Shown here one piece after another: positions 5,617 through 57,671 of a stretch of DNA of 62,501 nt. Positions within the stretch are counted from its first letter, which is position 1. The number at the start of each line of letters is the position of its first letter. The stretch is from an uncultured Candidatus Saccharibacteria bacterium. GTDB lineage: Bacteria; Patescibacteriota; Doudnabacteria; UBA920. The notes beneath the pieces are model-generated. The model was not told the DNA's origin and made no database searches. It was given only the letters and a program-made list of their open reading frames with translations. The stretch spans positions 99,548 through 162,048 of the forward strand of contig CAZTCH010000002.1 of the NCBI GenBank assembly GCA_964612745.1, read 5' to 3'. A program made the position numbers and the translations under genes.

Positions 5617-6657
5617 TTATGGAATCAATAACATACCATCGCCAAAAGAAAACAGTCTCATTTTTTGGCGAATAGCTTCTGTATATAAAGTAAATAATTC
5701 TTGTTTGCTCGTGAATGCTGCCACAAGCATAAGCAGACTTGATTCAGGAACATGAAAATTAGTCACCATGCCACTCACAAATTGGAACTGAAATGGTGGA
5801 TAAATAAAGAGCGTTGTATCCCCTTGCAACTCTTGTAGTTGCCCACCCTTCGCAGCAGACTCCAAAGTTCGCACGACGGTAGTCCCTACAGCAATTATCG
5901 GTCTACCTGCCTGCTTATACGCCATAAGCCTTTCTGCTACGTCTGGAGCAATTTCGTAGTGTTCAGCATGGAGTGAACCTGTTTCCAACTGTGCTGCACC
6001 CACAGGAGCGAACGTGCCCAATCCGACATGCAATGTCACCTTTTCTACCCCAAACCCTCTTTGCTCTAATTGATTTATAAGCGGCTCGCTAAAGTGCAAG
6101 CTCGCAGTAGGCGCCGCCACTGAACCCACGTGCTTTGCTAAAACGCTCTGGTACTCCGTCCGAAGCTCTGCCTCAGACAAGCGCGTCTGCTTAATATAGG
6201 GTGGAATAGGGGTTGTCCCATGGGAATATAAAAATTGTTCAAGTTCGGTCAAAGGGAAACTTGGCACTACCAGATACCCCTTGTCGAGACGCTCTGCAAT
6301 CTGGAATGTTTCTGCCGTGGAAACCAATGTTACCACTTCCCCTACGCGCAAAGGTCGATTCGCTAATACGCGCGCACCAGCAGCAGTTTTCCCTACGTAC
6401 AATAATTCAACCAAACCACCCGTGCTCTTCTGGGCCATAAACCGAGCTGGAAGAACTTTTGTTTCATTAAACACCAAGACAGCCCCCGCTGGTAAAAAAT
6501 CTGCGATATGCGCAAATGTAGAAAACTGTGTTTGCTGGATACTCTTTGAATACACCAGCAACCGAGCACTTTCACGCGGCGAAACAGGCTCTGTTGCCAA
6601 AAGCTCAGGAGGATACGTATATGCGTATTCACTTGGGTATGGTGGCAGATTTTGCAT
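5617..6657 (-). CDS. queA: S-adenosylmethionine:tRNA ribosyltransferase-isomerase
   Basis: QueA-like over its full length (YPPELLATEP..., C-terminal FSFGDGMLL). ATG at 6657 is preferred over the GTG at 6681 used in the track. Confidence 0.9.
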   Translation of the reverse strand: MQNLPPYPSEYAYTYPPELLATEPVSPRESARLLVYSKSIQQTQFSTFAHIADFLPAGAVLVFNETKVLPARFMAQKSTGGLVELLYVGKTAAGARVLANRPLRVGEVVTLVSTAETFQIAERLDKGYLVVPSFPLTELEQFLYSHGTTPIPPYIKQTRLSEAELRTEYQSVLAKHVGSVAAPTASLHFSEPLINQLEQRGFGVEKVTLHVGLGTFAPVGAAQLETGSLHAEHYEIAPDVAERLMAYKQAGRPIIAVGTTVVRTLESAAKGGQLQELQGDTTLFIYPPFQFQFVSGMVTNFHVPESSLLMLVAAFTSKQELFTLYTEAIRQKMRLFSFGDGMLLIP

Positions 6658-8092: not shown

Positions 8093-8153
8093 ATATAGTC
8101 ACAATCCCCATGGCTGCACAAAGCCATACACTTTATAATCCTACAGCAACCTT

Positions 8154-8391
8154 TGGTCGGGATACTGGGAATTGAACCCAGTCTAGCCTCTTCGGCTAGC
8201 ATGCTACGCCCACCCCACTTGTCCGCCGTAGTTGTAACGGAGGCGGATGGACGGTATCCCACATTAACTTTTGGTCGGAGTACCCGGAATCGAACCGGGA
8301 CTACACACACCCCATGCGTGCGTACTACCACTATACTATACTCCGTAACCAAAAGTTAATGTGGGACGTACTACCGGTATACGATATCCCG
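8154..8391 (-). other. Interrupted tRNA-like gene enclosing tRNA-Pro (outer acceptor, D and T arms intact)
   Basis: 5' CGGGATA-TC-GTATACCGGTAGTAC-G (8391..8367). 3' CTGGG-TTCAATT-CCCAG-TATCCCG-A-CCA (8181..8154). The 7/7 acceptor pairing spans 238 nt. See findings. Confidence 0.5.
8272..8345 (-). tRNA. tRNA-Pro (anticodon GGG)
   Basis: Manual cloverleaf: CGGAGTA/TACTCCG acceptor, D arm GTAT-AGTGGTA-GTAC, anticodon arm CACGC-ATGGGGT-GTGTG, T arm CCCGG-TTCGATT-CCGGG, A73, encoded CCA. 74 nt. Confidence 0.9.
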
Positions 8392-8557
8392 ATACCCAAA
8401 GGACACTGTAAGAAAACCAAAACCCTAAGCTCACCCCTGTCATAAACTCCCGCTTGCAAAACTGCCTCTTCTACTTCTTCTGTTTCTTCTAACTCTTCTA
8501 TTTCTTTATTCTTTCTCGGAACTAGTTACTCGTTACTAGCCACTAGCTACTGCTTCC

Positions 8558-28888: not shown

Positions 28889-28910
28889 AACTTTATAAAT
28901 TACAAATTAC

Positions 28911-29024
28911 AAGCATCAAAGAACAAATAAATTCGAAGTTATAAATTCCAAACCAAAAATTTTGGTCATTGATATTTTGGACGTTGGAATTTATTTGATA
29001 TTTGTTATTTGGGATTTGGTGCTT
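28911..29024. repeat. Long AT-rich imperfect palindrome built from degenerate heptamers
   Basis: Left arm AAGCATCAAAGAACAAATAAATTC... faces right arm ...GAATTTATTTGATATTTGTTATTTGGGATTTGGTGCTT. Lies between the T-box terminator and the glyQS start. Confidence 0.7.
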
Positions 29025-29044
29025 ATATCAACCTGGTACTTAAT

Positions 29045-33924: not shown

Positions 33925-34130
33925 GAGGGCAAAGAAAAACTAGGAACTCAAAAGTCAAAATGCAAAACTGCAACTCTGAACTCAAAACTGAATTGCATTG
34001 TAGTTTACAGTTTTGACCTGAATTTTTGACTTTTGGGTTTTGACTTTTGAGTTAAAAATGTATTTATTTGGATTTTGCATATTGGAATTTATTTGATATT
34101 TCGTGCTTGTGATTTGGAATTTTACCCTTG
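33925..34130. repeat. Degenerate heptamer arrays forming an imperfect long palindrome
   Basis: TCAAAAG TCAAAAT GCAAAAC TGCAACT... opposed by ...TTTTGAC TTTTGGG TTTTGAC TTTTGAG, followed by TTGGAAT TTATTTG ATATTTC GTGCTTG TGATTTG GAATTTT. Confidence 0.75.
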
Positions 34131-35224: not shown

Positions 35225-35265
35225 AAAAAGGGTAACCCTTTCGCAACGAAAGGGTTACCCTTTTT
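35225..35265. repeat. REP hairpin (also a likely xer terminator), 3' side of RAYT-2
   Basis: AAAAAGGGTAACCCTTTCG-CAA-CGAAAGGGTTACCCTTTTT, a 19-bp stem. Confidence 0.85.
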
Positions 35266-35274
35266 ACATGCGCT

Positions 35275-35874
35275 CTAGCCCCAAAATGGAACCTTGCCCA
35301 CATCTTTCTTCCTCCAACCTTCTACGAAGAATTTATATTTTTCTACACTGTTAGAAAACTGAGACATGATGAGTGCTGGTTTGCACAAACGGCTTTTACG
35401 CGAGCCGAGATAGTCTTGATAACTTGAGTATACATACGTATCCGGATTGGCAGGATTATTATGAATGTATGCAGACAGCGTAAGTAGGTATGGGTCATCG
35501 GTCACGTCCTTTGCCTTAAACGTATCTTGCCACAACGGACCCAATCGATTGTACTTTCTATTAAAATACATGGCGTAACTTGTGCATAATTTATGCAAAA
35601 GCTCACTTGTTGGAACATCGCCTAATTGCTGAATTTGCAGATGAAAATGATTTGGCATCAGACAATAACCGAGCACATCAAAATCACTTGGTAAAAATGC
35701 GTGCAAGCTAAGATTCGAATAACTTGGTTTTGGTAAACCTATTAATATCCCTAATCGAAGTAGAAAAGCTACATAATCACTTGCCTCCAAAAAAATATTC
35801 TCTTTATTCACTCCGCGATTATAAGCATGGTGGATACCTCCAGGATAAAACTGCTTGTTATCTCTATATCTCAT
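35275..35874 (-). mobile_element. REP-associated tyrosine transposase (RAYT, IS200-like Y1 family), copy 2
   Basis: HHAYNRGVNKENIF, CLMPNHFHLQI (HUH), YIHNNP. Paralogous to copy 1 and flanked by the same hairpin on both sides. Confidence 0.8.
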
Positions 35875-35895
35875 ACGTATTTAAATTAAAAACGA

Positions 35896-35935
35896 AAAGG
35901 GTAACCCTTTCACAGCGAAAGGGTTACCCTTTTTT
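35896..35935. repeat. REP hairpin, 5' side of RAYT-2 (overlaps photolyase stop)
   Basis: AAAAGGGTAACCCTTTC-ACAGC-GAAAGGGTTACCCTTTT. Confidence 0.85.
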
Positions 35936-43678: not shown

Positions 43679-43870
43679 GGCTGTGTTTTAAACTACCCTA
43701 CTTCTTCCTACAGATTTTCATGTAGTCGTTTCCTTACAGGGAACCTTCACAAGGATTCCGTGCGGAACATAGAGTTCAGATGCCGGCAACTCCAATCCAA
43801 GAGCTTTTTACGCTTTTTAGACGACACAACCGAGCTATTTATATATGTAATCATAACACGCAAAGAATAC

Positions 43871-43899
43871 TTGATAAAACTACCGAAAGATGGTAGACT
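43871..43899 (+). promoter_or_regulatory. Candidate sigma70-type promoter of the tRNA cluster
   Basis: TTGATA-N17-TAGACT lies about 40 nt upstream of the first tRNA-like 5' end. Confidence 0.4.
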
Positions 43900-43938
43900 G
43901 GGTTAGCTTCCAAAAACCAGAATAGCCCGTATCTGCAT

Positions 43939-44135
43939 GGTCTCGTAGCTCAATAACTAAATGTAACTCGCTTGATGGCTCCGTAGCTCAGCTGGATAGA
44001 GCGTCAGCTTGCGGAGCTGAAGGTCGCAGGTTCAAATCCTGCCGGAGTCACCAGACGAGTAACATTTAGTTTTACGATAGAGCGGTCCGATGCACATCGG
44101 ACAGGTCGCAGGTTCAAATCCTGCCGAGATCACCA
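43939..44135 (+). other. Interrupted tRNA-like gene enclosing tRNA-Arg(GCG)
   Basis: 5' GGTCTCG-TA-GCTC-AAT. 3' TTACGATA-GAGC-G-GTCCG-ATGCACAT-CGGAC-AGGTC-GCAGG-TTCAAAT-CCTGC-CGAGATC-A-CCA. Acceptor pairs 7/7 (one G-U). The anticodon loop is 8 nt. See findings. Confidence 0.5.
43977..44053 (+). tRNA. tRNA-Arg (anticodon GCG)
   Basis: GGCTCCG/CGGAGTC acceptor, D arm GCTC-AGCTGGATA-GAGC, anticodon arm TCAGC-TTGCGGA-GCTGA, T arm GCAGG-TTCAAAT-CCTGC, encoded CCA. 77 nt. Confidence 0.9.
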
Positions 44136-44199
44136 GATACGGGTTATTGTTATTTTAGTAGCGCCTACCTCACGGCTAGCCAAAACAAGATGCATATGC

Positions 44200-44274
44200 G
44201 CCCTTGTAGTTCAATGGATAGAACACTGGACTTCTAAGCCAGCTATCAAGGTTCGATTCCTTGCGAGGGCACCA
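44200..44274 (+). tRNA. tRNA-Arg (anticodon TCT)
   Basis: GCCCTTG/CGAGGGC acceptor, anticodon loop CTTCTAA, T arm CAAGG-TTCGATT-CCTTG, encoded CCA. One A-G mismatch closes the anticodon stem. Confidence 0.85.
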
Positions 44275-44289
44275 GAATACACTCTTGCT

Positions 44290-44330
44290 CACAAAGGTCA
44301 CCTTCGTTCAGTACGAAGGTGACCTTTGTG
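44290..44330. terminator. 18-bp hairpin after the tRNA cluster (terminator or REP-like)
   Basis: CACAAAGGTCACCTTCGT-TCAGT-ACGAAGGTGACCTTTGTG. No clear U-run. Confidence 0.5.
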
Positions 44331-44387
44331 AATCAGATTGGCAACAGAAGATAAAACACGATACACTATTTATAAGTATCAAAACAC

Positions 44388-45074
44388 ATGGAACCAATAC
44401 GCGTCCAAAAATATTTAAGTGAAAACGGCATCGCTTCACGGCGCAAAGCAGAAGAGTTTATTGTCAGCGGACAAGTCAGCGTAAACGGTAAGCGTGCCAA
44501 ATTGGGAGACAAAGTAGACCCCGAGCATGACACAGTCACCGTCTACGGCAAACGAGTAAAGCCACAAGAGAAAAAAATCTACTTAGCACTCTACAAGCCA
44601 AAAGAATACATGGTCAGCAAAAGTGACCCTGAACATAGACGAACGGTGTTCAAACTACTGCCCAAAGAACTTCAAAACAAAGTCTGGAATGTGGGAAGAC
44701 TGGACTACCACACCGAGGGCTTACTGATTCTAACGAACGATGGAGAGCTCACCCAGCAACTGGCTCACCCAAGTTTTGAACATGAAAAAGAATACGAAGT
44801 CATGGTAAATATTCCACCAACCAGCGAGCAAATCCAAGCATTGCGGGATGGTGTAGAAATTGCAACAGGCACCACGTACCCAGCTGGCGTAAAGTCTAAA
44901 GGTACGCTTATTACTATTACCATACACGAAGGAAAAAAGCGTCAGGTCAGACGAATGGTAGAAGCAGTTGGCTTGAAAGTAAAAAACTTAAAGCGTATCC
45001 GGATTAACAAACTAAAACTTCCCGAAATTCCGGTTGGTCAGTTTGTGGAAGTGCAAAAATCAGACATTCTCTAA
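44388..45074 (+). CDS. Pseudouridine synthase, RsuA/RluB family
   Basis: S4 domain (IRVQKYLSENGIASRRKAEE) and catalytic GRLDYHTEGLLILTNDG. Confidence 0.85.
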   Translation: MEPIRVQKYLSENGIASRRKAEEFIVSGQVSVNGKRAKLGDKVDPEHDTVTVYGKRVKPQEKKIYLALYKPKEYMVSKSDPEHRRTVFKLLPKELQNKVWNVGRLDYHTEGLLILTNDGELTQQLAHPSFEHEKEYEVMVNIPPTSEQIQALRDGVEIATGTTYPAGVKSKGTLITITIHEGKKRQVRRMVEAVGLKVKNLKRIRINKLKLPEIPVGQFVEVQKSDIL

Positions 45075-47989: not shown

Positions 47990-48503
47990 GTAAATCCTTT
48001 CTCAAAACACACACGAAAACACCGGCACGGCGTTTTGCATGCATGTTTTATATATATCCTGAACGTCAGCGAAGCATCTGTGTCTAGAGTCAGTCAAAAA
48101 GCTTCAAGATTTCTCACTCCGTCCAGCATATGATTAATTTATTGCATTATAATACATTTTTACACTTTTGTAAAGTCAAATTTTCCTAAGTTCAACAAGT
48201 AAGTGCAACACTCCTCAGGCTTAAACCCAGCATCTATCATTTCTCCTCTTTTCCAAAGAGGGTAACACCCTCCTATTCCCCTCTTTTCCAAAGAGGGGTT
48301 AGGGGAGTTCTACTGAATATACAGACTAACTGAAAAGTCAAAAATCAAAAGTCAAAACTTCAATTCAAAACTGTAAACTTCAACACATTATAGTTTTGAG
48401 TTCACAGTTGCAGTTTTGCATTTTGACTTTTGAGTTTTTAGTTACTTGTATTTGTTTGCTATTTCGTGTTTCTAATTTCGGATTTCTTGTAAGGTGGGCC
48501 GTC

Positions 48504-48600
48504 CTTGATGGGCACCATCTAACACAGTCTATAGATTAGTATGTAGCCAACTATGCATCTTTGAAAAACAGCAGGCTATTGTTAGATGGTGCCCATCAAG
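48504..48600. repeat. REPIN-like element A (21-bp inverted repeats + 55-bp core)
   Basis: CTTGATGGGCACCATCTAACA (48504-48524) pairs with TGTTAGATGGTGCCCATCAAG (48580-48600). Confidence 0.9.
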
Positions 48601-48703: not shown

Positions 48704-49012
48704 ATGAAGTTATTTTTCACCCTTGCAGCTATTGGCGTTGTCGCAGCAGGCTTTGGCTTGTACGCGCTCAACGGGCAAAAGCCAACAAGGCAAGAAAACA
48801 CACAAGCAGTAGCCCCAACACCAACCGCTATGGTCACGCCCATAGCCAGCAACCAATCTCTGGAAGCAATCTTGGGCGCGTCTGATTCAATACTTACCAC
48901 AGAGCAAGCTGCTGCAAATACAGCAGACAGCACGAGTACCGACACAGCGCTCTCTGCTGAAGACCAAGCACTTACTAATTTAGATAAAGAAGCTGGACTC
49001 TATGCAAACTAA
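48704..49012 (+). CDS. Hypothetical small exported/anchored protein
   Basis: MKLFFTLAAIGVVAAGFGLYAL signal/anchor. 102 aa. Confidence 0.45.
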   Translation: MKLFFTLAAIGVVAAGFGLYALNGQKPTRQENTQAVAPTPTAMVTPIASNQSLEAILGASDSILTTEQAAANTADSTSTDTALSAEDQALTNLDKEAGLYAN

Positions 49013-49763
49013 AACTACAAATTTCGCACTCGTATTATTCGTTACTTTTTTGGTAGGTAGCTCTGCAACCCCTACCCTTGCAGCAGCGCCTGCCCGTAGG
49101 ACCACCCCTACCCCAACAACTACAACTTTCTGTGCAAACTTCGATACGCAAACAACGAAGCTCCAAACCAAAGCAGCAGAAAAGGAAATAGAGCTGGGCA
49201 AAACCCGTGAAGAACGCAGCGGCAAGCTCGCTAAATCTCGTGAGAACAGAGACAACAAACTGGAAGAAGCCCGAGAAAAAGGTTCAACCGCTCGTACCGA
49301 GCAGTATGCCAAGTTGTTAGGCAAAGCAACCTCAGACGCACAAAAGCAAGCAGTTGCTACTTACCAAGCAACTATTACCGCAGCAATCGCAACCCGCCAA
49401 GCAGCGGTCAATGCAGCCATTGCTTCATTCCAATCTGGAGTAGATGGGCTTTTGGCAAAGCGCAAAACAGATACAGATAGCGCTCTGAAAAAGTTTAAAG
49501 ACGCTGTCTACGCTGCAGAGGCAAAAGCCAAAGCAGACTGTGCCGCTGGTGTAGACGAAAAGACTATCCGAGAAACTCTGAGAACTGCAGTTGCAGCAGC
49601 AAGAACACAGCTGCAAGCAGACAGAAAAGCTCTAACACCTATGAGCACAGAGATTGCGACTCTTACCAAAACCCGAAGAGCAACAGTAGACAAAGCATTT
49701 GCAGATTTTAAAGCAACTGCCGAAACTGCCAAAACAACTTTGAAAGCAGCATTCCCAAAATAA
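49002..49763 (+). CDS. Hypothetical secreted Ala/Lys-rich helical protein
   Basis: Signal peptide MQTKTTNFALVLFVTFLVGSSATPTLAAAPA, a PT stretch, then a long amphipathic-helix-like region. Confidence 0.5.
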   Translation: MQTKTTNFALVLFVTFLVGSSATPTLAAAPARRTTPTPTTTTFCANFDTQTTKLQTKAAEKEIELGKTREERSGKLAKSRENRDNKLEEAREKGSTARTEQYAKLLGKATSDAQKQAVATYQATITAAIATRQAAVNAAIASFQSGVDGLLAKRKTDTDSALKKFKDAVYAAEAKAKADCAAGVDEKTIRETLRTAVAAARTQLQADRKALTPMSTEIATLTKTRRATVDKAFADFKATAETAKTTLKAAFPK

Positions 49764-50039
49764 GCACCGCACTTTGATTACAAGCATCGCTCATAGCGAT
49801 GCTTTTTGCTTCCACATTTAGATGGGCACCATCCAACTCTTCAACCTTGCCTTGTCACCACTTTGTTGTTTTAAATTCCAAATAGCAATCTTCAAATTAC
49901 AAACAAGCTCCAATATACAATATTAAAATTTAAAACCTGTTCTTGTTTGGAATTTTGTCCGCTAATTTGGTAATTGTAATTTATTTGTTATTTGATGCTT
50001 GTGATTTCGGATTTCTTGTAGTGTGGATTGTCCTTGATG

Positions 50040-50136
50040 GGCACCATCTAACAATAGCCTGCTGTTGTTTAAAGATGCATAGCTGGCTACATGCTAATCA
50101 ATAGACCATGTTAGATGGTGCCCATCAAGCCCATAC
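50040..50136. repeat. REPIN-like element B (same inverted repeats, core inverted relative to A)
   Basis: The same 21-bp repeats lie at 50040-50060 and 50116-50136. The 55-bp core is ~87% identical to the reverse complement of the core of A. Confidence 0.9.
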
Positions 50137-50287: not shown

Positions 50288-51256
50288 ATGAATTACGGTT
50301 TTTGGGCGAAATTGCCCAAGCCATTTTTTGTTCTTGCCCCCATGTACGACGTCACAGACGTCGCTTTTCGACATGTCGTGAGCAGTGCTGGAGCCCCAGA
50401 TGTGTATTTTACTGAGTTCGTTTCCACAGACGGTCTCATGAGTCACGGCAAAGAGAAGCTCATGCACCACTTACAGAGAGAAGACTCCCCCACACCGGTT
50501 GTCGCCCAGCTGTTTGGAGCCAATCCAGAGAAGTATACCGGTACTGCACAACTCGTTGCAGAACTAGGGTTTCAGGGTGTAGACATTAACATGGGTTGTC
50601 CAGATAAAAATATTATTAAAGGTGGGTCATGTGCAGCACTGTTTCGCACACCAGAATTGGCACGCGATATCGTCTTAGCTGCAAAAGCAGGTGCGGGCAA
50701 CTTACCCGTGTCCGTAAAAATTCGCATTGGCGATACGAAAATAGATTGGGAACACTGGATAGCTACACTTTTGGAAGCACAGCCTGCTGCGATTTCTATT
50801 CACTTGCGCACACGAAAAGAAATGTCGAAAGTCCCCGCGCATTGGGAACTTATGCCAGAGATTGTACAGTTCATTCACAGTCACACAACAGCCGAAACTC
50901 GCCCACTCATAGTTGGCAACGGAGATGTGCTTACCACCCAAGAAGGTAGAACGAAAGTAGAGACTACAGGCTGTGACGGCGTCATGATTGGGAGAGGTAT
51001 TTTCCAAAACCCATGGGTATTTGCCAAAGACGCAGATACACCACGAAGCATCAAAGAAAAAGCAACACTACTGTTACTCCACGCTCAAAAATATGAACAA
51101 TACTTTCAAGGAGTAAAACTTCTCGAACCTCTAAAACGGTTTTATAAAATATACATCAACGGCTTCGAAGGTGCAGCAGAAATCCGCGAAGAACTGTATA
51201 AAACTCAATCCGTGGCTGAAATATCACACGTGCTCGAATCACGCAATATTTTGTAA
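50288..51256 (+). CDS. tRNA-dihydrouridine synthase
   Basis: LAPMYDVTDVAFR, GVDINMGCP, and a TIM-barrel Dus pattern. Confidence 0.9.
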   Translation: MNYGFWAKLPKPFFVLAPMYDVTDVAFRHVVSSAGAPDVYFTEFVSTDGLMSHGKEKLMHHLQREDSPTPVVAQLFGANPEKYTGTAQLVAELGFQGVDINMGCPDKNIIKGGSCAALFRTPELARDIVLAAKAGAGNLPVSVKIRIGDTKIDWEHWIATLLEAQPAAISIHLRTRKEMSKVPAHWELMPEIVQFIHSHTTAETRPLIVGNGDVLTTQEGRTKVETTGCDGVMIGRGIFQNPWVFAKDADTPRSIKEKATLLLLHAQKYEQYFQGVKLLEPLKRFYKIYINGFEGAAEIREELYKTQSVAEISHVLESRNIL

Positions 51257-56119: not shown

Positions 56120-56194
56120 GGTGCCCGTAGCTCAATGGTAGAGCACCGCTCTGTGGCAGCGGCTACGCGGGTCCGATTCCCGTCGGGCACCCCA
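56120..56194 (+). tRNA. tRNA-His (anticodon GTG) with encoded G-1
   Basis: G-1 pairs with C73. Acceptor GTGCCCG/CGGGCAC, anticodon loop CTGTGGC, T arm GCGGG-TCCGATT-CCCGT, encoded CCA. Confidence 0.9.
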
Positions 56195-56196
56195 TC

Positions 56197-56228
56197 AAAA
56201 ACACACTGGTTTTAACCAGTGTGTTTTT
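56197..56228 (+). terminator. Terminator after tRNA-His
   Basis: AAAAACACACTGGTT-TTA-AACCAGTGTGTTTTT. Confidence 0.8.
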
Positions 56229-56321
56229 GTTATCTCTAGCAACTAACGAAGGAGTCCTCCGTATTCGTAGTAACAAAAGGTACCTGACACCTTTTCTTTA
56301 CTCCTAGTTACTAAAAATTAT

Positions 56322-57245
56322 TTATAAGTTTGGACGCAATTGTCCAGACTGGCGAGCCGAAAGCACTCCAAATGGAACAAGAGCTGCATCTGCATCGTTC
56401 GCTGGTACCACATCTTCAAAAGAAAAACCCCAAGAATAAAACACCTCAGGAGACGGGAAAGATACATACCCACCAGCCAAAACATATAGCACCGTACCGC
56501 CTTGATTGATTAACGTTCCCGATCGATGCTGGGAACGAGGGTCATCGATATGAGCACCTGACTGCTGCAAAAATGACACATCTCCTGTAAGCGCTCGATT
56601 AAATTTGTATCCTAAGCCCTTAAACGCACGTTCCGATGTAAACCCAACTTTCCCACCGTCGGTTATTAAATAGCATGTGTTACGATCTACACCGCGATCT
56701 GAGCATAGCACCTTTCCATCGGCTGGTGGGGTAAACTGTATTTGCATCAGTAGCAAATCTGCACTGTTTGCCTCTACCACATTTGAAAAACTATTAAATC
56801 CGTAAGATAAAAAAGCACCTGCGGAAGTGTACGCACTTCTTTGATACTGATTATTAATAAACCAAATAGTACCATCTGGTGTACGGACATTTGTCCCAGG
56901 GGCATGAGGCAGCTCCCCCACAGACAAATACACGGTTATGTTGCTATTATCTATACTGCTCACGGACATGTACGCCGTGCTATAATTTCTCGTCTGTCCG
57001 TTTGTGTAAATGGCAGTGTAAGTCCCAAAGGGGTGGTGGTATACAATATATGCCCTATCAACTTCTACCGCCTGATATTCAATATAAATAGGATAATCCC
57101 CTACTTGCACAGTTTCATGCAGCGCGATTTCAAATGACTGGTTAATAGAAACCTGTCTGCGCCCATTGAACGCTGCAAGCTCATGTACACTCGTGGCGAC
57201 ATACACAAACGCCACAACCATCAATACTGCTAAATATTTTTTCAC
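56322..57245 (-). CDS. Secreted protein with C-terminal ~55-aa repeats shared with the giant FN3 protein
   Basis: Signal peptide MKKYLAVLMVVAFVYVATS. Modules such as GTLINQGGTVLYVLAGGYVSFPSPEVFYSWGFSFEDVVPANDADAALVP. Confidence 0.6.
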   Translation of the reverse strand: MKKYLAVLMVVAFVYVATSVHELAAFNGRRQVSINQSFEIALHETVQVGDYPIYIEYQAVEVDRAYIVYHHPFGTYTAIYTNGQTRNYSTAYMSVSSIDNSNITVYLSVGELPHAPGTNVRTPDGTIWFINNQYQRSAYTSAGAFLSYGFNSFSNVVEANSADLLLMQIQFTPPADGKVLCSDRGVDRNTCYLITDGGKVGFTSERAFKGLGYKFNRALTGDVSFLQQSGAHIDDPRSQHRSGTLINQGGTVLYVLAGGYVSFPSPEVFYSWGFSFEDVVPANDADAALVPFGVLSARQSGQLRPNL

Positions 57246-57321
57246 GGATTTTCTCTCTTTAATTACCCTTATAATACCACACAGACACGAAAAGGTGTTA
57301 GATGTATTTCTTTGGATTGCA

Positions 57322-57365
57322 CTGTAGCAGAGTAATCACGGGTTCGATCCCCGTTAGGCACCCCA
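57322..57365 (+). pseudogene. 3' fragment of a tRNA-His-like gene
   Basis: CTGTAGCAG..TAATC-ACGGG-TTCGATC-CCCGT-TAGGCAC-C-CCA aligns to the anticodon-loop-to-CCA part of tRNA-His. No 5' half. Followed by a copy of the terminator (57368-57398). Confidence 0.6.
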
Positions 57366-57671
57366 TCAAAAACACACTGGTTTGAACCAGTGTGTTTTAT
57401 TATCTCTAGCAACTACCGAAGGAGTCTGCCGTATTCGTAGTTATAATAAGGTACCTGACACTTTTTCTTTACAATTTGGAGCCTTTAAGCCCACCAATAT
57501 TTTGCACCGAGTATCTTCTTGTTGAAGATTACTAAAAAATACTCTGCCGGAAAGAATACCAACCAGCACTCTGATTTTAGAGTAACGCGGGACGAACCAC
57601 CTAGTAAAGAAAAGGTGTCAGGTAAAGAAAAGGTGTCAGGTACCTTTTCTATTCAAAACAAATAGGCGCAA

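Follow-up and report, generated by a model that had tools for sequence, protein, structure and literature searches.

A complete tRNA-Arg gene nested inside a tRNA-Arg gene: a probable replacement-bearing cassette in a genome of the candidate phyla radiation

The stretch of DNA considered here, which we call the window, is 62.5 kb (62,501 nucleotides, nt) of the genome of an uncultured Candidatus Saccharibacteria bacterium (GenBank assembly GCA_964612745.1, contig CAZTCH010000002.1), a member of the Patescibacteriota, and it carries at 43,871-44,340 on the plus strand a transfer RNA (tRNA) locus in which a complete tRNA-Arg(GCG) gene lies inside an outer, tRNA-like shell. A preliminary description of this DNA had read the locus as concentric layers, with an outermost leader/trailer stem, the outer tRNA-like gene, a second stem, and the inner tRNA, and every element that it listed was found in its place (Table 1). 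The outer shell (43939-44135) has the acceptor stem GGTCTCG/CGAGATC, the D stem GCTC/GAGC, and a T arm identical to that of the inner tRNA, and its anticodon region is a hairpin, GTCCG-ATGCACAT-CGGAC. Inserted in the D loop of this shell is a cassette totaling 117 nt, with no open reading frame (ORF), which is closed by a helix of 16 base pairs (bp) including one A.A mismatch (43955-43970 with 44056-44071) and holds the inner gene, called tRNA-Arg(gcg) by ARAGORN and scoring 71 bits against Rfam RF00005 (E = 1.6e-13, threshold 29). The leader/trailer helix is extensible, in an inverted-repeat search, to 43913-35/44134-56. All of these layers are reproduced in the minimum free energy fold of 43915-44155, at -109 kcal/mol against a mean of -66.3 for shuffled sequences (z = -9.45, 0/200 as stable). 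The direct repeat that had been taken to relate the two tRNA layers proves longer than first given (35 nt at 91% identity, 24 nt of these exact), and with the T arm common to both it bears that relationship out; similarly, the outer D loop does lack GG once the insert is removed, reading AAT+TTACGATA. The single sigma-70-like promoter proposed for the unit is a consensus match at 43871-43899, conserved in the closest relative and similar in two others (L132/L139), and from this putative resident promoter the whole nested unit would be transcribed together with a plain tRNA-Arg(TCT), in a gene order, Arg(GCG)-Arg(TCT), that is kept in many relatives. At the long hairpin that follows the pair (44280-44340), the terminator scan made no intrinsic-terminator call.

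The nature of the outer shell follows from comparison with relatives. The pseudouridine synthase encoded nearby has its relatives in Patescibacteria metagenome-assembled genomes (MAGs), labelled mostly Candidatus Doudnabacteria, and in the closest of these (synthase 97% identical) the same locus, L001 in our collection, is a plain 77-nt tRNA-Arg(GCG) whose acceptor stem, GGTCTCG/CGAGATC, and leader/trailer helix are identical to the window's. In the block comparison, window 43866-43952 is 97.7% identical to L001 55-141, where L001 continues as an intact tRNA, and window 44103-44400 is 99.3% identical to L001 172-469. Plain genes are also present in more distant relatives (L139, L128/L006, L004, and L005), and because the closest and the more distant relatives alike have them, the insertion is the derived state. 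A second nested locus, at 8.2 kb in the window, has a plain counterpart (L081) in the same MAG; at both loci the flanks are 92-99% identical to the window's, and the two genomes differ in whether an insert is present or absent at a given nucleotide of a conserved gene. Judged from these alignments, the resident genes are what forms the outer shells, and it was in the window's lineage that they were interrupted. The preliminary description had also counted the leader/trailer stem as the outermost layer of the nesting. That count has to be reduced by one, since the same helix flanks the uninterrupted gene in L001 and is thus a property of the resident gene and not of the nesting. Such helices are widespread: a leader/trailer helix of at least 10 bp is found at 29/197 non-redundant tRNAs among the collected loci (L001-L162), its 3′ strand starting at or within a few nt of the encoded CCA and its 5′ strand typically set off by a spacer of 2-4 nt, while in a shuffled-trailer control the per-tRNA mean of the best leader/trailer helix is 2-9 bp. 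The leader/trailer helix is a lineage-wide pre-tRNA feature in genomes of the candidate phyla radiation.

The locus at 8.2 kb, on the minus strand, had been offered as a sign that the architecture recurs, and it does follow the same plan, around a tRNA-Pro(GGG) at 8272-8345 (57 bits in Rfam; fold z = -8.77). Compared block by block with its uninterrupted orthologue (L081 924-997), the resident Pro gene, with outer acceptor CGGGATA/TATCCCG, carries three inserts. In the largest, the cassette, an 18-bp helix (8349-8366 with 8257-8274, the latter including the inner CCA) encloses a spacer TTA, the inner tRNA-Pro(GGG), and TAC. The other two are hairpins, and the boundary of the one in the variable loop (8183-8203) is ambiguous by 3 nt owing to a repeated TAG. 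ARAGORN calls the outer gene tRNA-Pro(GGG) only with all three inserts removed. As at the Arg locus, the leader/trailer helix is also found around the intact gene, here with differences that preserve pairing (U-G to C-G, U-A to U-G). This would be the same event in tRNA-Pro(GGG), with two extra hairpin inserts in the dead outer copy.

Table 1. Features of the two nested loci in the window and of related minimal GIY-YIG ORFs
Feature	Position	Strand	Basis
Putative sigma-70-like promoter, TTGATA-17-TAGACT with upstream TG	43871-43899	+	consensus scan; function predicted
Leader/trailer helix of resident Arg gene, 5′ arm; partner 44134-44148	43921-43935	+	fold, inverted-repeat search
Outer tRNA-Arg(GCG), 5′ fragment: acceptor 5′ strand, U8-A9, D-stem 5′ strand, start of D loop	43939-43954	+	
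Cassette helix, 5′ arm, AACTAAATGTA-ACTCG; final 5 nt ACTCG are the family motif	43955-43970	+	fold, repeats
Cassette leader CTTGAT, single-stranded, directly 5′ of inner tRNA	43971-43976	+	presumed RNase P substrate leader; processing predicted
Inner complete tRNA-Arg(GCG), CCA encoded; presumed working gene	43977-44053	+	ARAGORN, Rfam
Cassette trailer GA and cassette helix 3′ arm, CGAGT-AACATTTAGTT	44054-44071	+	fold, repeats
Outer gene, 3′ fragment: rest of D loop, D-stem 3′ strand, replaced anticodon arm, variable loop, T arm, acceptor 3′ strand, CCA	44072-44135	+	
Near-palindromic hairpin in place of outer anticodon arm, GTCCGATG-CA-CATCGGAC	44085-44102	+	
Leader/trailer helix of resident Arg gene, 3′ arm; begins within outer CCA	44134-44148	+	fold, inverted-repeat search
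Plain tRNA-Arg(TCT), 3′ of nested unit, same presumed transcript	44200-44274	+	ARAGORN, Rfam
Long hairpin after tRNA pair, candidate transcript end	44280-44340	+	inverted repeat
Resident (outer) tRNA-Pro(GGG), three inserts	8154-8391	-	fold, comparison with L081
Pro cassette, after outer position 26	8254-8366	-	ARAGORN, Rfam, fold, repeats
30-nt hairpin insert TCCGCC...GGCGGA-CAAG, outer Pro anticodon loop, between positions 32/33	8218-8247	-	L081 comparison, fold
Hairpin insert of ~21 nt, CAT-GCTAGCC-GAAGA-GGCTAG, outer Pro variable loop	8183-8203	-	L081 comparison
Leader/trailer helix of resident Pro gene, 5′ arm; partner 8140-8156	8396-8412	-	fold
Minimal GIY-YIG ORFs (81-89 amino acids), stop within next tRNA	L219 911-1165; L231, L233, L241, L215; L082 654-899 (minus strand)		

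The state of the outer Arg copy bears directly on which of the two tRNAs works. The anticodon arm of L001 reads TCAGC-TTGCGGA-GCTGA; in the outer copy of the window a near-palindromic hairpin of 7-8 bp with a 2-4-nt loop occupies that place, and G18G19 has been lost. With the insert removed, ARAGORN at default settings finds 0 tRNA genes in the outer copy, and the 3′ fragment gives a partial Rfam tRNA match of 21.8 bits, below the gathering threshold of 29. Because a hairpin that could not decode has taken the place of the anticodon arm, the outer halves are most likely a relic, and it is the inner gene that most likely works. The preliminary description had suggested instead that the outer layer was a separate tRNA, possibly reading Cys (GCA). 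This fails on orthology, for the corresponding L001 gene is a tRNA-Arg(GCG) with the same acceptor and flanks, and we rejected the outer shell as a tRNA-Cys or a quadruplet decoder on that ground and on the default ARAGORN result for the spliced outer copy.

A broader form of the same idea is that the locus makes a functional three-layer RNA, whose outer halves stay paired as a split tRNA or tRNA-like RNA, maybe for Cys or quadruplet decoding. All outer helices are intact in the window fold, a relaxed ARAGORN run makes one tRNA call with the 4-nt anticodon gcac, several outer copies from metagenomes are fully intact (L208, L210, L229, and L242), and the hairpin in the anticodon arm, being present in four relics, is no product of random decay. 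We nevertheless regard this idea as distinctly unlikely. Intact helices are uninformative here, because the outer copy is orthologous to the plain tRNA-Arg(GCG) and the insertion is recent; the outer copy is missing the G18G19 and has the short-looped hairpin for an anticodon arm; it would be redundant with the inner gene, because the two share one anticodon; and among the 31 hairpin-bearing copies described below, none is otherwise intact. Moreover, the outer shells of relatives lose halves, gain extra hairpins, and expand loops. The anticodon loop has grown by 6 nt in L097, which also has T54C; the 3′ half is gone in the L018 Arg-TCT, L092, and L126; the acceptor strand is gone in L132; and CCA has become CTA in L041. 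The preliminary description had allowed that its reading of the shell as functional would fall if an intact copy of the outer tRNA existed elsewhere and the outer sequence were decaying, and this is essentially the situation: the intact copy turns out to be the inner gene itself, and it is in the related shells that the decay is seen.

Similar hairpins take the place of the anticodon arm in four unrelated tRNA-Arg relics (window 44085-44102, L132, L212, and L214), with the form YCCGAYG..CRYCGG, a 5-bp stem, and an 8-9-nt loop, directly after GAGCG. As sequences, they are too alike for independent decay.

If the inner gene works, its origin becomes the question. The inner Arg core is 98% identical to the resident gene, differing from it in three compensatory acceptor pairs and one T-loop base, and the inner Pro gene differs from its resident in every arm (acceptor stem, D loop, anticodon stem, variable loop, and T stem). 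Given these differences, neither inner gene is a fresh local copy, and by this comparison both are of foreign origin. The competing account is a local rearrangement with no mobile element, in which slippage or template switching at the locus's own hairpins would have been followed by drift. In its favor, the difference from L001 can be written as two insertions with direct-repeat bounds (CGTAGCTCA; AGGTCGCAGGTTCAA..), and the inner Arg core is nearly that of the resident. It is, however, an unlikely account: besides the compensatory acceptor changes and the divergence of the inner Pro gene, it would have to accommodate leader/trailer motifs common to the cassettes of unrelated genomes with other Arg anticodons, two loci of one genome hit after the split from the L001/L081 genome, and a hairpin insert that different lineages have at an identical site, whether in Arg-TCT, Arg-GCG, or Ile genes.

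The shared motifs define a cassette family, which we take as a complete tRNA-Arg bracketed by a leader ACTCG-CYTGAY and a trailer (GA)CGAGT and lodged in a tRNA-Arg gene with the same anticodon. The window's ACTCG-CTTGAT-(tRNA)-GA-CGAGT fits the consensus of 10 other nested tRNA-Arg cassettes; the family leader is CCTGAY by consensus, and L242 has CTTGAT like the window. Across 163 sources (1.2 Mb), CCAGACGAGT is confined to nested cassettes, namely those of the window, L018, L041, and L097, and in the last three the same leader/trailer motifs bracket the inner tRNA-Arg within outer arms CCCGCCCG/CGGGCGGG, inserted precisely between the D loop (..GGATA) and GAGC. On these motifs, the window cassette is a member of a tRNA-Arg cassette family found across genomes of the candidate phyla radiation and metagenomes. 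We consider it likely that the resident tRNA-Arg(GCG) was split by a replacement-bearing cassette of a tRNA-targeting insertion family, that the inner copy is the one that works, and that the family spreads in a homing-type or recombinational manner.

A metagenome scan for the family's D-loop junction returned 40 loci of three kinds. The first are nested cassettes, carrying Arg-CCG, CCT, TCG, or TCT. Inner and outer anticodons are the same in 5/5 cases that ARAGORN can read and in 2 more by eye, over four Arg anticodons, and because the anticodon stems of the inner and outer genes differ, the agreement does not come from conversion of the whole anticodon arm. The second kind has a hairpin-bearing 5′ relic followed by a GIY-YIG ORF of 81-89 amino acids, catalytic domain only (Pfam E = 1e-12 to 1e-19), which lies between the relic and an intact tRNA at at least 9 loci; the third has the hairpin-bearing 5′ relic in the same arrangement without the GIY-YIG ORF. 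Hairpin-only inserts were found in an otherwise intact tRNA in 0/31 cases, with an intact tRNA-Arg just downstream in 23/31, whereas long inserts hold an intact inner tRNA in 8/8, their outer copies being intact in only 4-5/8. On these counts, inserts are not tolerated in working tRNA genes. The association reaches beyond tRNA-Arg. In an Uhrbacteria tRNA-Ile (L082), a hairpin and a GIY-YIG ORF are followed by the start of a second tRNA-Ile copy, the rest of which is N-masked (~484-650); one hairpin insert is shared, down to the nucleotide at which it sits, by Arg-TCT, Arg-GCG, and Ile genes in different lineages; and free-standing GIY-YIG homologues adjoin tRNAs at six more loci. That nested cassettes, hairpin relics, and tRNA-fused minimal GIY-YIG genes all belong to a single, so far undescribed class of selfish element that specialises in tRNA genes can be put forward only tentatively.

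In most cases the stop codon of the GIY-YIG ORF lies inside the 5′ part of the next intact tRNA (the TAG of CGTAG/GGATAG), and because it does, RNase P cleavage would strip the stop codon from the message.

The same counts speak to the notion of an intron-like intervening sequence, by which the insert would be excised, the outer exons rejoined, and both tRNAs made. The inserts do have helices at their borders and occupy loops or the ends of helices, and ribosomal RNA (rRNA) genes of the candidate phyla radiation carry insertions that are excised (PMC11270868). We find this very improbable all the same. There is no bulge-helix-bulge, the junctions at 43954/55 and 44071/72 bounding instead a continuous 16-bp helix with its one mismatch; Rfam E-value scans of both window loci and six related loci returned only tRNA, with no group I/II intron or other family; the window's outer copies would lack an anticodon even after excision; and hairpin-only inserts are never seen in otherwise intact genes. 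To our knowledge, moreover, no tRNA splicing endonuclease is known from bacteria.

The preliminary description had asked whether tRNA-in-tRNA nesting occurs in other genomes, and further like-in-like cases, for Arg and for Ser, were found when one genome per species was scanned for tRNA-Arg(GCG) and Arg(TCT) cores, together with the synteny loci. Arg-GCG lies within the T loop of Arg-GCG in L018/L098 and within multi-insert relics in L101 and L047; Arg-TCT lies in the T loop in L086 and L152, where the flanking helix shows a single compensatory change, C-G to U-A, and in the D loop in L097, L092, and L041/L091. In two Parcubacteria/Patescibacteria MAGs (L103, reverse complement 5905-6250, and L117), Ser-TGA lies within the anticodon loop of a Ser-TGA relic, flanked by the helix CACCGCACC(G/T)GG, and because of these cases the nesting is not limited to tRNA-Arg and tRNA-Pro. 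Flanking helices of 16 bp (Arg) and 18 bp (Pro) in the window reach 20-22 bp in relatives. Partial relics stand beside an intact copy in L126 and L132, and same-strand self-fragments were found within 350 nt at 29/212 non-redundant tRNAs. This recurrence also disposes, to our minds, of an assembly artefact or chimeric contig built from repeated tRNA sequence. MAGs can be mis-joined at repeats, and one nested locus is in fact split over two contigs (L091, L041), but the repeats are short (24-35 nt), the junctions make precise helices of 15-20 bp, and over 20 independent assemblies, made in different studies, show the same architecture, so that an artefact is hardly credible.

How a replacement-bearing cassette would work can be proposed in some detail. 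Because the cassette helix would insulate it from the outer halves, the inner tRNA should fold by itself; RNase P would then cut at G43977, the 3′ end would be trimmed to the encoded CCA, and cleavage of the flanking 16-bp helix may aid release. The long helix formed from the flanks is that expected of an RNase III intervening sequence, for which cleavage is predicted. The outer halves would be discarded by-products with no decoding role. In small genomes, presumably with single-copy tRNA genes, an insert in such a gene would survive only if a same-identity replacement came with it, and it is probably because selection demands the same decoding capacity that only like-in-like nestings are seen; for an element aimed at the Arg-specific D arm the filter would be mild, about 1 in 5. 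Inserts without such cargo would persist only in copies already redundant. The cassettes would spread through homologous recombination or through gene conversion of the homing type, the conserved tRNA "exons" acting as homology arms, and the nuclease would be supplied in trans or have been lost. Homing-type conversion fits, because alleles are filled or empty in close relatives and because of the GIY-YIG association, and co-conversion is suggested because the outer T loop of the window matches the inner gene and not L001. From these patterns, homing-type or homologous-recombination spread is most likely the route by which the cassette moved. A filled allele, with an older relic piece, seems to have moved between lineages, because the outer hairpin is homologous to that of the L132 relic.

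Several results weigh against the cassette reading as applied to the window itself. No nuclease, integrase, or transposase gene lies in or next to either nested locus, a tblastn search with the GIY-YIG protein gave no match in the 62.5 kb, and neither cassette helix has a second copy there. The window's own cassettes were not found in any other context: the metagenome scan with the locus-specific 25-mer leader returned 0 matches, as did viral scans for the inner Pro core and the window Arg trailer. The window arms AACTAAATGTA/AACATTTAGTT are unrelated in sequence to those of the main family, and the insertion site falls nearer the start of the D loop (after GCTCAAT, A14-A-U) than the main family's, after position 21. 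The link from the window to GIY-YIG is a chain, from leader/trailer to hairpin arms to hairpin plus endonuclease gene, and not direct. The outer anticodon hairpin is common to the window and L132, a relative at 83% identity, and because it is shared, the history of the locus, as these two sequences give it, involves more than a single insertion into a gene like that of L001. The intact shells of L208, L210, L229, and L242 (4-5 in the metagenomes) may, from their sequences, retain an outer function, and a radical variant is that some of them (L208, L229, and L242) may work as two-piece tRNAs. Finally, further Arg(GCG) or Pro(GGG) genes may lie elsewhere in the genome, beyond the window.

Conventional classes of mobile element fit only in part. 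The cassettes have terminal inverted repeats, of 16 bp (Arg) and 18 bp (Pro), as miniature inverted-repeat transposable elements do; within the window no further copies share their termini, the two cassettes have unrelated arms, and any target-site duplication is ambiguous. For a homing element, filled and empty alleles do occur in close relatives, and beside the inserts in the window there is no endonuclease gene. An integrase-type tRNA island was rejected on the size of the insert (117 nt), its lack of an ORF or recombinase, and the complete nested inner gene. Phage origin was rejected as well, since viral scans for GGATACCCGCCCGAC and CCAGACGAGTCAGGCGG match only unrelated coding sequence. 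The hairpins of the window have no other copies within it.

The genes neighbouring the nested loci are ordinary chromosomal ones (polyprenyl and phytoene synthases, the pseudouridine synthase, and ParB). A look-up of the exact pseudouridine synthase sequence, aimed at sister strains, found no record of it. Elsewhere in the window, a Y1 transposase ORF (35275-35874, minus strand; region 35225-35933), for which the best model, a weak one at 36 bits, is REP-associated tyrosine transposase, lies between two copies of a perfect palindrome, AAAAGGGTAACCCTTTCG/CGAAAGGGTTACCCTTTT, that the window has nowhere else; as a mobiliser of the cassettes it was rejected, its palindromes being unrelated to the tRNA inserts. 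A tRNA-His (56121-56194) is followed 1.1 kb downstream by an orphan 3′ piece from another tRNA-His allele (57338-57365; region 56121-57470), each then followed by ~110 nt of homologous sequence with the same hairpin. The ORF between them (56322-57245, minus strand) has no convincing family match. By its arrangement, this region looks like another scar of tRNA replacement or insertion. Two copies of a 97-nt unit (48504-48600 and 50033-50129) each enclose a 55-nt core between perfect inverted repeats of 21 bp, CTTGATGGGCACCATCTAACA/TGTTAGATGGTGCCCATCAAG; the core is in opposite orientation between the copies, and in their layout the units look like invertible switches upstream of the ORFs 49002-49763 and 50288-51256. 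Long A/T-rich imperfect palindromes of AAAGTCAAAA-like repeats occupy three intergenic sites (28894-29027, 33945-34053, and 48328-48436).

In the full-text literature searched, which reached few subscription journals, there is no description of tRNA-in-tRNA nesting in bacteria, and the nesting of a whole tRNA within another of like identity is apparently an undescribed, recurrent mode of tRNA-gene invasion. If the cassette reading is true, it supplies a bacterial route to broken tRNA genes in which translation is kept up by a carried spare copy, and it bears on the origin of intron-containing, split, and fragmented tRNA genes, argued mainly from archaea. Such an element would inherit the resident promoter and carry tRNA alleles horizontally across lineages of the candidate phyla radiation, and because it breaks a single-copy gene and supplies the replacement, it could not be lost. 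tRNA genes would be turned over continuously, leaving split, multi-insert relics like those debated in archaea. From a practical perspective, standard tRNA finders report the inner gene only and miss the relic shells, and these shells, which on this reading mark recent gene replacement, could be used to trace the horizontal flow of tRNA alleles in unculturable bacteria.

Among the closest known parallels are the disrupted tRNA genes of archaea, with multiple or non-canonical introns, split or permuted, and processed at bulge-helix-bulge motifs (PMC4090602, PMC3978253); for one archaeal population, disruption of tRNA genes by a mobile element has been proposed (Sugahara et al. 2012, PMC3293823). 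In both settings the interruptions fall at the D loop, 26/27, the anticodon, the variable loop, and the T loop, with long helices and multiple inserts. Unlike the archaeal genes, the loci described here have no bulge-helix-bulge, a bacterial host, pieces that are not rejoined, and an insert that contains the tRNA presumed to function. Within the candidate phyla radiation itself, insertions in rRNA genes were reportedly described by Brown et al. in 2015. Inserts abound in these rRNA genes, and some carry GIY-YIG or LAGLIDADG genes (Tsurumaki et al. 2024, PMC11270868), and the word "tRNA" is absent from the main text of that survey. The two kinds of insert share the radiation, structured-RNA genes as targets, sites at the tips or bases of helices, short helical forms without intron features, and presence that varies among relatives; the difference is that rRNA inserts are removed so that the host RNA works, whereas here the host tRNA is replaced by the carried copy. 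A nuclease parallel is SegB, a free-standing GIY-YIG homing endonuclease in the tRNA cluster of phage T4 (PMC2330249). There, too, a GIY-YIG gene sits among tRNA genes, as at our related loci it sits among or in them, and SegB spreads with flanking tRNA sequence via break repair. SegB is nevertheless full-size, of phage, and splits no tRNA, while the related loci encode catalytic-domain-only proteins of 81-89 amino acids, with the stop codon in the restored tRNA and a conserved D-arm hairpin, and the window loci are without a nuclease gene.

Integrative elements, such as phages and islands, enter tRNA genes and rebuild the displaced 3′ part; Williams, in NAR in 2002, reportedly treats an example. 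Unlike these, the cassettes carry a whole tRNA and not a 3′ portion, are nested with no attL/attR around a large element, measure only ~117 nt, encode no integrase, and are bounded by inverted and not direct repeats. Like them, they take a tRNA gene as target, bring a substitute for what they break, leave the displaced fragment behind, and have insertion points that cluster at loop/stem junctions.

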